From Escherichia coli (GTDB taxonomy: Bacteria; Pseudomonadota; Gammaproteobacteria; Enterobacterales; Enterobacteriaceae): a DNA stretch of 64,000 bases. Of the stretch, positions 19,202-27,196 are shown piece after piece. How positions within the stretch are numbered: position 1 is the stretch's first letter; every line of letters begins with the position of its first letter. The stretch lies in NCBI RefSeq assembly GCF_024502345.1, contig NZ_JALDNN010000001.1; one strand, written 5' to 3'. The notes under the pieces are model-generated. The model searched no databases. It saw nothing but the letters and a program-made list of their open reading frames with translations, and was not told the origin of the DNA. The position numbers and the translations under genes were made by a program.

Positions 19202-19468
19202 ATGAAAACCAATAATATTTTAAGGAATATCTTCATGAAATCAAAAGACACCCTAAAGTGGTTCCCTGCGCAGCTTCCTGAAGTCAGAATTATCCTGGGA
19301 GATGCTGTCGTGGAAGTAGCAAAACAGGGAAGACCTATCAATACCAGAACATTGCTTGATTACATTGAAGGAAACATAAAGAAAAAGTCATGGCTGGATA
19401 ACAAAGAATTATTACAAACAGCGATATCAGTTCTTAAAGACAACCAAAATTTAAATGGTAAAGTGTAA
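19202..19468 (+). CDS. ydfK: YdfK/YnaE-like prophage cold-shock protein
   Basis: ...MKSKDTLKWFPAQLPEVRIILGDAVVEVAKQGRPINTRTLLDYIEGNIKK... matches remembered YdfK/YnaE; the true start may be the internal MKSKDT. Confidence 0.7.
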   Translation: MKTNNILRNIFMKSKDTLKWFPAQLPEVRIILGDAVVEVAKQGRPINTRTLLDYIEGNIKKKSWLDNKELLQTAISVLKDNQNLNGKV

Positions 19469-19847
19469 TACCTCCCCTGAAAAATAATTTTTCAATGCAT
19501 TAAAAAAATATCAACAACTACGTTATTCCGCAACAACCTACTTTTTTTACCATTTTTCCACTTTAACAACATTTTGCTCCACTTTTCCACGACCAAACAA
19601 CTTAAAATCTGGTTAAAATAACATACAACACTATTATTCGTCTTCCTCGAGTCCGCCCGGAGTTCGAAAAACAAACCGAGTTAAAGCCATTTTTCAAAAA
19701 ATCGATTTTTGGTTACACCAAAATTACGGGACTGCATCCGAATTCGTTTATTTTCGAACGTATACATACAAATATGTACAATAATAAGCGAAATAATTTT
19801 TGGATATGCATTATGATATGTACACCAATTTCGTATAGAGTCTCACT

Positions 19848-20438
19848 ATGTCTCGAATTTTTGCTTACTGTCGGATATCAACGCTGGATCAGACCCCCGA
19901 AAATCAACGCCGGGAAATCGAAAGTGCAGGTTTTAAAATCAAACCTCAGCAAATAATCGAAGAACACATTAGCGGCTCAGCAGCAACCAGTGAGCGTCCT
20001 GGTTTTAACCGGTTGCTTGCTCGCCTGAAATGTGGTGATCAATTGATTGTGACAAAACTGGATCGCCTTGGTTGTAATGCAATGGATATCAGGAAAACAG
20101 TGGAACAACTGACCGAAACAGGTATCAGAGTGCATTGCTTAGCATTGGGGGGCATTGACCTGACCAGTCCAACAGGAAAAATGATGATGCAAGTAATTTC
20201 AGCAGTCGCTGAATTTGAACGAGACCTTTTACTTGAACGCACTCATTCCGGGATAGTAAGAGCCCGGGGCGCAGGGAAACGTTTTGGTCGACCACCTGTG
20301 TTAAATGAAGAACAGAAACAGGTGGTATTCGAACGAATTAAGTCAGGTGTAAGTATAAGTGCCATTGCCCGGGAATTCAAAACCTCGCGGCAAACCATTT
20401 TAAGAGCCAAAGCAAAACTTCAGACACCTGACATATAA
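19848..20438 (+). CDS. pin: Serine recombinase, DNA invertase (Pin/Gin/Hin family)
   Basis: [28 protein letters not shown]... resolvase catalytic domain plus C-terminal HTH. Confidence 0.9.
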
Positions 20439-20535
20439 AAAATAATCTCGGTGTGAGATGCTTTACGTCTTCCAAGCCCCCTTCCTTGCCGTAAATGGAA
20501 AGATACATCTAATTATAGAATTTATATGTTTTACC

Positions 20536-21117
20536 CTACGGCAGTGCTGGCCATTCAATATCCTGTGCAGTTGACGTATCAACACGGTTCAGCAATACCC
20601 GATACTTTTTCCATGCTTCCAGCAACGAGATTTCTTCCTCCGTTGCAATTTCCAGATCTGCAGCATCCTGAAGCGGCGCAATATGCTCACTGGCTACCTG
20701 CATCAGGTTGTTTTTTGTTTCTTCCGCCTCCCGGATCCGGAACAGTTTTTCTGCTTCCGTATCCTTCACCCAGGCTGTGCCGTTCCACTTCTGAAACTCC
20801 CCTTCCGGGGATAACCAAGTGACATTTTCCGGTAATGGGCCAAGTTCAGAAATAAATAACGCGTCGCCGGAAGCCACGTCATAGACGGTTTTACCCCGAT
20901 GGTCTTCAACGAGATGCCACGATGCCTCATCACTGTTGAAAACAGCCACAAAGCCAGCCGGAATATCTGGCGGTGCAATATCGGTACTGTTTGCTGGCAG
21001 ACCTGTATGAGGTGGAATATATGCATCACCTTCACCAATAAATTCATTAGTTCCGGCCAGCAGATTATAAATTGTTATGGTCCGTGGTTGTTCACTCATT
21101 CTGAAATCCATGTTCAC
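20536..21117 (-). CDS. tfa: Tail fibre assembly protein (Tfa)
   Basis: 193-aa ORF with Tfa-like sequence, immediately downstream of the tail-fibre-like ORF. Confidence 0.8.
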
Positions 21118-21119
21118 CT

Positions 21120-22022
21120 CTACTTAATATCAGAGACAGAATATTGTTTATTGAACGTATGGGTGTGAGCACCAATAACGATGCTACTTCCGTGGCTATG
21201 TGCGCCAGAGATGACATTACCTACGGGATTTTCTGGATTAATCCGGTGTATATGCGAACCAGGGCGAAACCGGTTATTAGCCTGATGTTGTATCAGTACA
21301 TCATCAGCCTGATGTTCAGGGTTAATACAGACCTGCCCGGAACGTGAGCAATACGTCCGATAATCGCCGCATCCAATATATTTAGTATCCGCATAACGGC
21401 AAACAGAATTACCCGGACAGTATGCATATGTGCCAAATACTGCCGACTGGCGGGATTGTGCGTATTCCCAGTTAATTGATTCTGTTTTTTTATTAAAGTT
21501 ATCCCATGCCTGCTTCATCTGCCGGGCAACACTTTCAAACGGCACCTGACCACATCCGGCTCCCATTGCAGGGAATACCACCGTTTTTATTTTCCTGTCT
21601 GTCGTTGCGTGTTTATTGTGCTGAAAGATGGCAAGCAGAGCGGCCCAGGTTGCGTTATATACAGCGTCTGTTCCGTCAATTGTCAGCGGAACACGCATTG
21701 TTGGCGCATGTACCAGCCAGGGATGATGATTATGCCCCGTTTCAATAACAAATGCAGAACCTACAGGCTGCTCGCCGAGATATTCACGAAGAATATGATT
21801 CTGAACGCGGGACTGTAACTGAGTACCGAAGAATGCGGTAATGGCGGCATCAACACCGCCATCCATCAGGCCGAAACTGTTTGCCGCACTTACCATGCAG
21901 TCAAATTCCCTGATTGTTTCAAATGGCTTTCCGACAATATTCACATTATCTGCATTTGCGAATACCCGCTTAAATGCTTCAGCCATTTCTGTTACTGGTG
22001 CAGAAAGAATGAGCGTAATCAT
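21120..22022 (-). CDS. Macro-domain-like protein with a Cys-rich, HxH-repeat C-terminus
   Basis: Motifs [30 protein letters not shown]...[21 protein letters not shown] resemble the macro (ADP-ribose binding) fold; C-terminus GAHSHG...GAHTHT resembles tail-fibre HxH repeats. Confidence 0.55.
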
Positions 22023-22170
22023 GCAAGCCTCACAATATAGTTAAATGCGATGTTTTTGACGGTGTTTTCCGCGTTACCAGCAGCGTTAACGGTGATGGTG
22101 TGTCCATGTGACCCTATCGCAACGGAGTGCGTATGAGCACCAATACCGACAGTATGCGCGTGTGCACCTG
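22019..22170 (-). pseudogene. C-terminal fragment of side tail fibre (Stf) protein
   Basis: ...[51 protein letters not shown]; canonical Stf C-terminal end; N-terminal part missing. Confidence 0.7.
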
Positions 22171-22204
22171 CAGATACTGCTGTAAAAACGCATGAAATGT
22201 GCCG

Positions 22205-22892
22205 ACTCGTTAGCGGCTTTTTCGATCTGGCAGGAGCCTTTGATTTTAGGCGTCGAGCCGCGAATGGATTTTGGCCATACAGAGCCCTCAATACGTTTAT
22301 CCCCCAGCAGGGTTGGCGAACCCTCTTTTTCAACATCCGGTTCGAACGAGGAAAGTTCGTCATAGCAGACCACATCCACGGATTTTTCACGGTAGTTTTT
22401 GGCGGCAGCGCCGCCCAGGCACCATAAACCGACGCCCGATGAAAAGCGTTTCAGCGTGAGGGTATTATCACGATGTTTACGACCCAGCCATGGGGAAAGG
22501 TCTTTCAGGCATGGCACGTCCCTAATCGTCGTCTCCACGTGAGACTTCATAAAATCTTCAGCGGCAGAATCCGTGGGCTGAAAAAGCAGACTGTTTCGGG
22601 ATTTATGCTCAATAAAATACCCGACCACCCCCAGCAACATCTTTGTATAGCCAACACGGGCAGATTTAATCAGATTAACTGTGCGGATCTGATCATTCCC
22701 CATACTGTTCATGATGGCGATCTGGAACGGCAGCGTTTTCCATTCGCCGTCACCGTATGAGGATTCTTTCGGCAGATAATAATACTGATCAGCCCATTCA
22801 ACTGCCGTCATCGGTACAACCCTGACCAGAGGCTGCAGCGCAACCGAAACGGCAGCCATCAGATTATTCAGTTGTTGCTCTGATATATTCAT
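22205..22892 (-). pseudogene. Terminase large subunit (lambda gpA-like), N-terminal fragment only
   Basis: MNISEQQLNNLMAAV...TAVEWADQYYYLPKESSYGDGEWKTLPFQ...[34 protein letters not shown] aligns with lambda A residues ~1-250, then the frame degenerates into the stf fragment. Confidence 0.8.
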
Positions 22893-23367
22893 CCAGCAAA
22901 TCCGGTAATTTATCCCCTGCCCGCGCACACTGATTTGCGCCCTTCGCAATAAGGGTTTTCAGATGGTCAAGATGACGTGGCGTTAAATCCGGGAACTGTC
23001 GCTGCATGGATAACGGAATAGAATCAAGCGTACTGGACAATGCCATCGCCAGCTTGCTGAGGGCGAAAACGCAGAAGTCTGAATCGATGAGCTTACCTTC
23101 GGTTACCTGATTTTTAAGTTTTTGAGCTACGGCCTGTTCTTCTGTCAGTTCAGCTCTGGCCCGAAGCAGCCTTTCCTCCAGATCGCCCCCGTCATCAGGT
23201 GTTCTATGATTGTGTTGTCGCCGCTCGCGATCTATCTCCAGTACAGTTTTAACGTCATAAAAAACTTCCCTCCCCCGACGCTCGACAGGAGGAACGCCCC
23301 ATTTATCAAATGCCTGAACAGAGATACCGATGGAGGAGGCCATATCACTTTTATTCAATAAAAAGGC
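22864..23367 (-). CDS. Terminase small subunit (lambda Nu1-like, NohA/NohQ-type)
   Basis: MAFLLNKSDMASSIGISVQAFDKWG...LPLSMQRQFPDL...LDEYI resembles Nu1. Confidence 0.8.
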   Translation of the reverse strand, partial: AFLLNKSDMASSIGISVQAFDKWGVPPVERRGREVFYDVKTVLEIDRERRQHNHRTPDDGGDLEERLLRARAELTEEQAVAQKLKNQVTEGKLIDSDFCVFALSKLAMALSSTLDSIPLSMQRQFPDLTPRHLDHLKTLIAKGANQCARAGDKLPDLLDEYIRATTE

Positions 23368-25592: not shown

Positions 25593-25805
25593 TCAAAGTG
25601 CCACTACATGAACAGCCGCGGGGCCTTTAGGTCCGTTCTCAATACCAAATTCGACTTGCTGATTCTCAGTTAACGTTTTGAAATCGTTGCTCTGAATAGC
25701 TGAGAAATGGACAAACACATCTTTGCTACCATCTTTCGGCGTGATGAAACCAAAACCTTTTTCAGGGTTAAACCATTTCACTAAACCAGTCATTTTGTTA
25801 GACAT
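25593..25805 (-). CDS. cspI: Cold-shock protein (CspA family), prophage copy
   Basis: [38 protein letters not shown]... RNP1/RNP2 motifs; the paralog name is a guess from Qin gene order. Confidence 0.8.
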
Positions 25806-26174
25806 CATTATTACCTTTTGAAGAAGTGAGCCCTTGGGCAGAATGGTCCGAAAAAAAATATCAGAGAGAAAAACCAACAAGGAAATCTCAAGAGGTACAA
25901 ATAATAAAATTATAACAATGACTGCTTCAGATAATTTTGTAACAAACCAGAACACCATTAACGCATGATTAACCAACCATAGCAAGGATTACTTTTGTAA
26001 AGAAAAACACACGAATGAAACAATAGCTTTATTTATTAATAAAACGTGTCATTCTGTCTAATGACCTTTTATCTTACCCTTAAGATTTCAAGGATTTTGA
26101 CTCATGGAAGAGTCCTTTTTATTTAAATTTCACATTCAGCGCTAAAAATAATCCGATTTAATGTTAATCTACAT

Positions 26175-27196
<1,022 letters not shown>

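Follow-up and report, generated by a model that had tools for sequence, protein, structure and literature searches.

A macrodomain gene carried as an optional cassette between the side-tail-fibre and tfa genes of a Qin-like prophage remnant in Escherichia coli

ADP-ribosylation and signals derived from nicotinamide adenine dinucleotide (NAD) are now central in bacterial anti-phage immunity. The first phage macrodomain counter-defence protein, AdfM (PhiKZ gp104, PhiPA3 gp108), was reported in 2026; it is DarG2-like and strips the ADP-ribose added by DarT2 from DNA (PMC13309987). AdfM, a macrodomain protein, neutralises DarT2, while AdfB, a NADAR protein, neutralises DarT1 (PMC13309987, PMC11825919). 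The Macro-2 type clade of macrodomains has been described as ADP-ribose-1''-phosphate phosphatases that lack activity in removing mono-ADP-ribosylation (de-MARylation), and its sole studied member is yeast YMR087W, a housekeeping protein of eukaryotes linked to the by-products of tRNA splicing (PMC6397177). Here, we describe a phage macrodomain gene of 300 codons in a stretch of 64,000 nucleotides of Escherichia coli DNA (contig NZ_JALDNN010000001.1, assembly GCF_024502345.1; the whole stretch is referred to as the window, with positions counted from its first letter). The gene lies between the 3' remnant of a side-tail-fibre gene (stf) and the tail-fibre assembly gene tfa. An earlier note on this DNA, made from the sequence alone, had pointed out an open reading frame (ORF) of 300 amino acids between these two genes, and both its coordinates and its reading frame were as described there.

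21120–22022, minus strand: intact macrodomain gene, 300 codons, ATG at 22022 and TAG stop at 21120–21122 (ORF list; PHROG 2613; Pfam Macro).
21438–22022, minus strand: macro domain proper, codons 1–195 (AlphaFold2, PDB matches, invariant residues, ratio of nonsynonymous to synonymous substitution rates (dN/dS) of 0.09).

The earlier note had taken the first approximately 190 residues to be macro-like. Pfam, AlphaFold2 and Foldseek all agree with this, the pocket residues are present and the region shows no fibre or chaperone fold. Pfam Macro (PF01661) matched residues 44–169 of the ORF over its full model (1–118) with E=1.5e-18, and the function-unassigned family PHROG 2613 matched residues 1–270 (E=1e-148). 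NCBIfam models for ADP-ribose-binding/deacetylase proteins were matched with E down to 8e-14, at scores far under the equivalog cut-offs (21–52 bits against cut-offs of 200–315 for the MacroD-type/YmdB deacetylase equivalogs, the best being 51.8 against 246). The AlphaFold2 model, for which 103 homologues were supplied, showed the three-layer α/β/α macro fold with high confidence at residues 1–199 (predicted local distance difference test score, pLDDT, >95), and its confidence was intermediate at 200–240 (50–77), where two β-hairpins were predicted, and low at 240–300 (<50). Structural comparison with the PDB using Foldseek yielded macrodomains exclusively, and the top matches in AFDB were likewise macrodomains. 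The best PDB matches were 1njr (YMR087W), TTHA0132, macroH2A, DarG and MacroD, with 1njr (yeast YMR087W/Ymx7) ranked top both by Foldseek (6e-11) and by hmmsearch with the family profile (5e-18).

Macrodomain pockets contain an Asp that contacts the adenine, an Asn ahead of a Gly-rich loop and a phosphate-binding G-x-G-x-G loop. The conserved pocket residues of the ORF are D41, N48, G55-G56-V57-D58, H105 and G154-A-G-C-G158. Three of these, N48, D58 and H105, are invariant in a 12-sequence alignment of the family; across 103 distant homologues N48 and D58 are conserved in at least 90% and H105 in fewer than 90%. In the profile alignment they pair with N80, D90 and H145 of 1njr, reportedly the active-site residues of YMR087W according to its 2005 structure paper. 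Pfam Macro_2 (PF14519) gave a partial match to residues 42–128 (E=4.3e-4), and PF14519 is precomputed for many of the homologues. Judged from sequence and predicted structure, the N-terminus of the ORF is a genuine macrodomain that retains the predicted binding and catalytic residues; among characterised proteins, yeast YMR087W, of the Macro2-type clade, is its closest relative.

An intact predicted ADP-ribose site in a macro fold is also what would be expected of an orphan enzyme that, in the manner of an antitoxin, undoes the action of one particular ADP-ribosyltransferase toxin, be it a DarT-type enzyme modifying DNA, a host-defence enzyme acting on mRNA or protein, or one of the phage's own. 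This is the anti-defence or antitoxin idea put forward in the earlier note. The precedents of AdfM and AdfB (PMC13309987, PMC11825919) fit such a role, as does the setting of the closest relative that lacks the C-terminal tail, P0121 (64% identical), which on its phage contig is flanked by ParB-like and methyltransferase genes, typical counter-defence cargo, with terminase further downstream. However, the ORF is not of the DarG/TARG1 type: the catalytic pattern of that group, TKx(30,35)Px[IL]GxGxD (PMC6397177), with its Lys, is absent from the ORF sequence, and PADLOC returned one marginal partial match to DarG (38 residues, E=0.005) and nothing further. De-MARylating activity is reportedly lacking in the nearest clade (PMC6397177), which weakens the idea of a protein that reverses protein ADP-ribosylation, and no toxin gene, DarT included, is adjacent in the six annotated loci examined. 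We therefore consider an antitoxin-like role unlikely.

On its own, the macro domain falls into a large family of approximately 200-residue proteins of bacteria and protists. Its homologues in phages phiM12, RTH11, TM16, phiRSL1, P106B and FBKp24 are standalone proteins of approximately 180–230 residues, encoded among small early or accessory non-structural genes. As short standalone proteins in such surroundings, they indicate that the names 'tail protein' and 'tail assembly-like' given to members of the family are transitive annotation. Proteins of approximately 200 residues misnamed in this way occur in cyanobacteria, Paenibacillus, planctomycetes and in jumbo and rhizobial phages without fibre context, and the source of the names is the enterobacterial prophage gene. 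In the Klebsiella jumbo phage FBKp24 (L013, 954–1517 and 3414–4013) the macro homologue is found three genes downstream of an RNA 2'-phosphotransferase of the Tpt1/KptA type; the by-product of Tpt1/KptA is the precursor of ADP-ribose-1''-phosphate, and the layout in FBKp24 hints at a pathway link for the macro clade. In the Microcystis cyanophage Mae-JY35 (L014, 3435–5415) the homologue lies two genes upstream of a peptidase-S74 fibre-like gene, a single case that may be a second, independent instance of a macro gene near a fibre gene or a coincidence.

We next turn to the position of the gene, for which the features that flank it directly are these.

22019–22022, minus strand: ATGA overlap between the TGA stop of stf (22019–22021) and the ATG of the macro gene (sequence).
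22019–22184, minus strand: stf 3' remnant, the last approximately 55 codons (PHROG 295 tail fibre, C-terminal end; 98.7% identical to the 3' end of K-12 stfR).
20536–21111, minus strand: tfa, tail-fibre assembly chaperone (PHROG 105, E=5e-99; 97.4% identical to K-12 tfaR; junction sequence).

The gene forms a 0.9-kb insert exactly between an ordinary stf 3' end, whose protein finishes with the usual stf terminus …NYIVRLA, and an ordinary tfa. In the Rac prophage of K-12, stfR and tfaR, 98.7% and 97.4% identical to the flanks in the window, are directly adjacent (TAATG). The flanks had matches in 4,727 genomes, of which only 118 carried the insert; in the rows without it that were sampled, the stf end and tfa matched as two pieces with approximately 89–98% identity, covering 41–45% of the query. 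Since near-identical flanks occur with and without the gene, this is a clean presence/absence polymorphism. Composition sets the gene apart as well: its GC content at third codon positions is 40.5%, whereas tfa has 59.4%, the stf fragment 49.1% and the terminase gene beyond it 55.7%. The macro gene is an optional cassette at the stf/tfa junction and not a fibre, a fibre chimera or a chaperone homologue. The earlier note had put it where the receptor-binding fibre gene normally stands; it is instead an extra gene between a complete stf 3' end and tfa. The ORF has no similarity to the Tfa family in PHROG or Pfam, the real tfa being the next gene.

Nor is the arrangement unusual, as had been supposed. 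The gene is present in 127 of 5,426 complete E. coli genomes, at 108 chromosomal and 22 plasmid places, and its ORF is intact in 126 of the 127 carriers. E. coli 06-00048 has an intact lambdoid prophage at the same chromosomal site, and there the three genes follow in the same order with an identical 4-nt overlap; its macro gene is 99.9% identical to that of the window across 903 bp (product WP_000631342.1). The order stf-macro-tfa recurs in the P2-like phages SEN4/SEN5 and Chuche, in P1-like phage-plasmids and in Gifsy-1, whose copy has carried the annotation 'contains pfam01661, Macro' for a long time. The family is conserved across Escherichia, Salmonella, Citrobacter and Erwinia. We also examined 80 loci from IMG/VR, 75 of them with upstream sequence: in all 75 the preceding gene is a fibre gene ending in …NYIVRLA whose stop overlaps the macro start, and in nearly all loci tfa comes next. 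At least six different stf tip sequences precede near-identical macro genes.

Loss and damage were seen here and there. In E. coli ST2350 (H13/H93, NZ_CP031321.1) the macro gene is split by an IS3-family element, plasmid pEC17CM13_2 (L009) carries a frameshifted copy, and the gene is occasionally lost while the flanking tfa stays. Salmonella phage SEN34 (L005, 4001–4153) retains a short remnant of the four-cysteine (Cys4) part alone, 61% identical to residues 184–244, next to an acyltransferase-3 gene and downstream of the fibre genes; it is probably the relic of a former cassette. In two P1-like phage-plasmids (L008, 7493–8038; L009, 7532–9218) stf-macro-tfa is followed by genes for a hexapeptide acetyltransferase and a lipopolysaccharide (LPS) N-acetylglucosaminyltransferase, which occupy the place of the invertible C segment and cin of P1. 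These acetyltransferase and LPS transferase genes beside the fibre module are possibly surface-modification cargo.

The family, the domain and the position are already known from public annotation. RefSeq names WP_000631342.1 'macro domain-containing protein', formerly 'phage tail protein'. Given this annotation and the 99.9% identity to a gene annotated in RefSeq, the locus is ordinary as an observation. Full-text literature searches that combined macrodomain and tail-fibre terms turned up no study of the macro gene, and the genome paper on SEN4/SEN5 leaves it undiscussed.

Beyond the macro domain the protein has a C-terminal extension, in which the earlier note had correctly seen cysteines and fibre-like HxH repeats: four of the cysteines are invariant and the repeats are GxHxH units.

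21303–21437, minus strand: Cys4 module, codons 196–240 (YCPxxxxC…YIGxGDYRTYCxxxGxxCI..HQ.DD; invariant Cys; dN/dS 0.14).
21123–21302, minus strand: variable tail, codons 241–300, with degenerate fibre-like GxHxH repeats; its length and motifs vary.
21160–21181 and 22128–22149: 22-nt direct repeat, 19 of 22 bases identical, both copies encoding IGAHTH.

The four cysteines (C202, C208, C225 and C232) are invariant in the 12-sequence family alignment, and the Cys4 module is restricted to the phage subfamily located at the stf/tfa junction. A PHROG search with the Cys4 region gave no match besides 2613; the module is possibly a small metal-binding knuckle. The repeats of the tail read GSHIH / GAHSH / GAHTH in the ORF. 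Among family members there are one to four HxH units per copy, giving a total protein length of 253–300 residues, and in many copies units are damaged (AH>TP, H>Y). The tail is disordered in the AlphaFold2 monomer; a construct of three linker-joined tails reached a pLDDT of 31 with no trimeric fibre-like fold, a result that is uninformative and not negative.

Selection differs sharply along the gene. By the Nei–Gojobori method on 16 distinct E. coli-type genes, dN/dS is 0.09 for codons 1–195, 0.14 for 196–240, 0.35 for 241–270 and 1.46 for 271–300, values that describe a pattern and do not constitute a test, as the pairs are non-independent. Purifying selection is strong on the macro and Cys4 parts but is not seen on the last 30 residues, with their HxH motifs. 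A variable tail with mutated HxH motifs and a terminal dN/dS of approximately 1 or higher might be read as a sign that the gene has no present role and is a scar of recombination, in which a captured macro gene joined to a broken fibre 3' end is decaying; the occasional copies disrupted by the IS3 insertion and frameshifts, and the residence of the window copy in a deleted prophage remnant, would agree with that. The values of 0.09 and 0.14 upstream, the catalytic residues invariant in the phage subfamily alignment, the intact state of the gene in 126 of 127 E. coli carriers and its conservation across four enterobacterial genera all speak against decay. A scar is thus highly improbable, and the selection pattern largely refutes it.

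The earlier note had also reported a DNA-level similarity between the ORF and the stf fragment and suggested recombination, or a chimeric fibre. The similarity exists (19 of 22 bases), although it is weak: blastn of the gene against full-length stf gave E=0.13 with a longest exact run of 12 nt. Under a naive binomial model, about 8e-4 such 19/22 matches are expected. As both copies of the 22-nt repeat encode IGAHTH, they reflect a shared repeat motif and are no evidence for recent exchange, leaving the suggested recombination unsupported; a recent exchange between tail and stf was rejected on the blastn result. At the protein level, residues 250–289 of the ORF share 39% identity with stf residues 912–945 over 41 aligned residues (pairwise E ~9e-4), a match driven by the repeats. 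The Pfam Phage_fiber repeat (PF03335) matched the ORF non-significantly (E=7.9), the sole tail-fibre PHROG found with the C-terminal 107 residues was phrog_295 (E=0.26), and the tail has neither the conserved stf C-terminal end nor a fibre shaft. The idea of a chimeric fibre does not stand: the HxH tail occurs throughout the family, the match at the DNA level is marginal and no fibre fold is present in the N-terminus. Natural fusions of stf to a macro domain were sought; the longer homologues were instead either assembly chimeras or fusions of a eukaryote-like kind, with WD40-like, RRM or phosphatase parts.

No promoter or terminator of the macro gene's own gave a signal above shuffled expectation. 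Together with the overlap of its start with the upstream stop, this marks it as a non-autonomous gene embedded in the late operon. As to function, we favour, at a probability we would put near even, an accessory enzyme of the late operon that would act in the cytoplasm on an ADP-ribose derivative, perhaps in the clean-up or reversal of a product of host NAD/ADP-ribose stress or defence. The cassette would spread by homologous recombination in its two conserved flanks, the 3' end of stf and the 5' end of tfa. Its protein would act within the infected cell or the lysogen, binding ADP-ribose and hydrolysing a substituent on the distal ribose, with ADP-ribose-1''-phosphate or a related NAD-derived or ADP-ribosyl product as the predicted substrate, and this hydrolysis would clear the product of NAD/ADP-ribose-based stress or defence reactions of the host. 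The Cys4 module would probably serve metal-dependent folding, oligomerisation or targeting, and the terminal HxH repeats may be a poorly constrained relic or mimic of fibre repeats. The macro protein would on this account be neither a receptor-binding protein nor needed for building the fibre; the near-identical macro genes behind at least six stf tips reveal no tie to receptor specificity. The non-structural surroundings of its relatives and AdfM as a phage precedent for counter-defence likewise speak for this reading.

Several observations weigh against a purely cytoplasmic enzyme. Placement in a late operon is unusual for a counter-defence gene, as these are usually early, and the phages with stf-macro-tfa yielded no partner gene for an ADP-ribosyltransferase, Tpt1 or a defence function. 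The position is invariant (75 of 75 loci), the gene is ATGA-coupled to stf and its 3' end is coupled to tfa by a ribosome-binding site or a start–stop overlap, while the Cys4 and HxH extension is confined to the junction subfamily; this combination of invariant position, coupling and restricted extension suggests some link to the fibre. Some HxH repeats also persist in copies only 51–65% identical (L059, L093), which is hard to explain if they are purely a relic.

These points lead to the main rival reading, that of an accessory subunit attached to the fibre, whose Cys4/HxH tail docks, possibly as a trimer or via Tfa, on the HxH needle of stf. The macrodomain would then be displayed on the virion, there to bind or hydrolyse a surface structure of ribose-phosphate or ADP-ribose-like kind, or the protein might take part in fibre maturation or metal delivery. 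An invariant stf-macro-tfa position with ATGA overlap in 75 of 75 loci and three phage lineages is in keeping with this, as are the fibre-type GxHxH extension found in the junction subfamily only, the purifying selection on the Cys4 module and the cyanophage homologue near a peptidase-S74 fibre-like gene; the dN/dS of 1.46 in the last 30 residues would also fit an exposed, diversifying tip. Against this, K-12 Rac has a near-identical stf end and tfa without the macro gene, and thousands of genomes show the same match in two pieces. As stf and tfa occur without it, the fibre does not need the macro protein. The macro gene is unlinked to any single receptor tip, the HxH motifs are mutated in many copies and the name 'tail protein' came about by transitive annotation. 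Nor does the tail co-vary with the HxH repeats of its own stf: in a 13 x 13 comparison of local alignment scores no signal was seen, the own stf ranking anywhere from 1 to 13, and the claim of co-assembly was accordingly given up. We also know of no ADP-ribose-like ligand on enterobacterial surfaces. A fibre-attached subunit is therefore possible but doubtful, and its more specific form, a virion component that the Cys4/HxH tail anchors to the side-tail-fibre needle or to retained Tfa as a portable add-on to many tips, is less probable still. The cytoplasmic accessory enzyme remains the reading we prefer.

Further from the gene, two neighbours complete the picture of the locus.

19848–20438, plus strand: pin, a Pin-type serine DNA invertase gene (PHROG 125 DNA invertase, E=5e-68), convergent with tfa.
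22190–22949, minus strand: N-terminal fragment of the terminase large subunit gene (PHROG 15 and 4145), joined to the stf remnant by deletion.

Homology with an intact prophage stops at 22184, and a deletion junction at approximately 22185–22190 fuses terminase codon ~256 to the final approximately 55 stf codons. The terminase-frame ORF (22086–22949) reads out of frame into the stf remnant. The prophage in the window is a Qin-like lambdoid remnant adjoining prfC, and an intact relative of its right-hand part is found in E. coli M-17. With the stf remnant fused to the terminase N-terminus, it is a Qin-like lambdoid prophage without any head or tail genes; in a deleted, tail-less prophage, any fibre-related role of the macro protein is moot in this window. 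At 25593–25985 and 26175–27196 the remnant retains a cspI-like cold-shock cluster and rrrQ/rzpQ-like lysis genes, as does K-12 Qin. On the other side of the macro gene, tfa likely starts at ATG 21111, preceded by the ribosome-binding site AGAGGTG, and the annotation of E. coli 06-00048 gives this start too; in the program-made ORF list it begins at GTG 21117 instead.

The earlier note had assigned the gene to a Pin invertase module, and pin is indeed adjacent. However, no inverted repeats of useful length are present in 19400–22500, and a search of the whole window for hix/pix-like sites with a AAACCNNGGTTT-type core found nothing relevant near the locus. Only one tfa cassette lies beside pin. 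An invertible fibre-switch segment of the Mu G, P1 C or e14 P type was rejected on these three grounds. In this, pin looks orphaned, like the invertases of K-12 Rac and Qin.

As part of a degraded prophage, the gene in the window is both ordinary and already known; what interest there is attaches to its family. A true counter-defence enzyme would represent a new clade and perhaps a new substrate, and the stf/tfa junction would then be a landing pad for cargo that moves with fibre cassettes among lambdoid, P2-like and P1-like phages. If the protein were bound to the fibre, that would be a real surprise, as the first macrodomain displayed on a phage adsorption organelle. Either way, the gene family is a reasonable and cheap experimental target for the biology of ADP-ribose in phages. 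For annotation, the lesson is that 'phage tail protein', as a name for standalone macrodomains of approximately 200 residues in many phyla, is a transitive error.

Comparison with characterised systems places the family as follows. AdfM, like the ORF, is a phage-encoded macrodomain, in its case standalone, and sets a precedent for counter-defence. It differs in belonging to the DarG/ALC1-like, Lys-dependent clade and in having no fibre context and no Cys4/HxH tail; the PhiPA3 protein that matched the window ORF is '271', the product of a gene other than AdfM. Relative to AdfM, the family described here is of the Macro2 clade, occurs widely among temperate enterobacterial phages, Gifsy-1 being one of them, and is built into the fibre operon. 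YMR087W (1NJR) has the active-site-aligned N/D/H residues and the phosphate loop G-x-G-x-G in common with the ORF, while being only approximately 21% identical to it, having insertions and lacking the Cys4/HxH extension. The MacroD-type proteins (E. coli YmdB, human MacroD1/2 and Oceanobacillus MacroD) share the macro fold, N-x6-GGVD and the adenine-contacting Asp, but have G[VIA][YF]G as their second motif where the ORF has GAGCG, and their PDB matches are weaker than 1njr. Stf/StfR and the fibres of the P2 gpH family carry GxHxH repeats like those of the ORF tail, in which they are degenerate and weakly constrained; T4 gp37 is an iron-binding needle with HxH-type repeats. With morons the gene shares optional presence, deviant composition and a junction used by many phages, although morons are autonomous units with their own promoter and terminator and the ORF has neither above chance. 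The closest correspondence is with Gifsy-1 STM2588.1n, SEN4 gp19 and WP_000631342.1. From the Gifsy-1, SEN4 and RefSeq copies the window gene differs only in that its prophage lacks head and tail genes; the Salmonella copies are 62–70% identical to the window ORF, and all belong to the same family, with the same macro, Cys4 and HxH architecture and the same place between stf and tfa.

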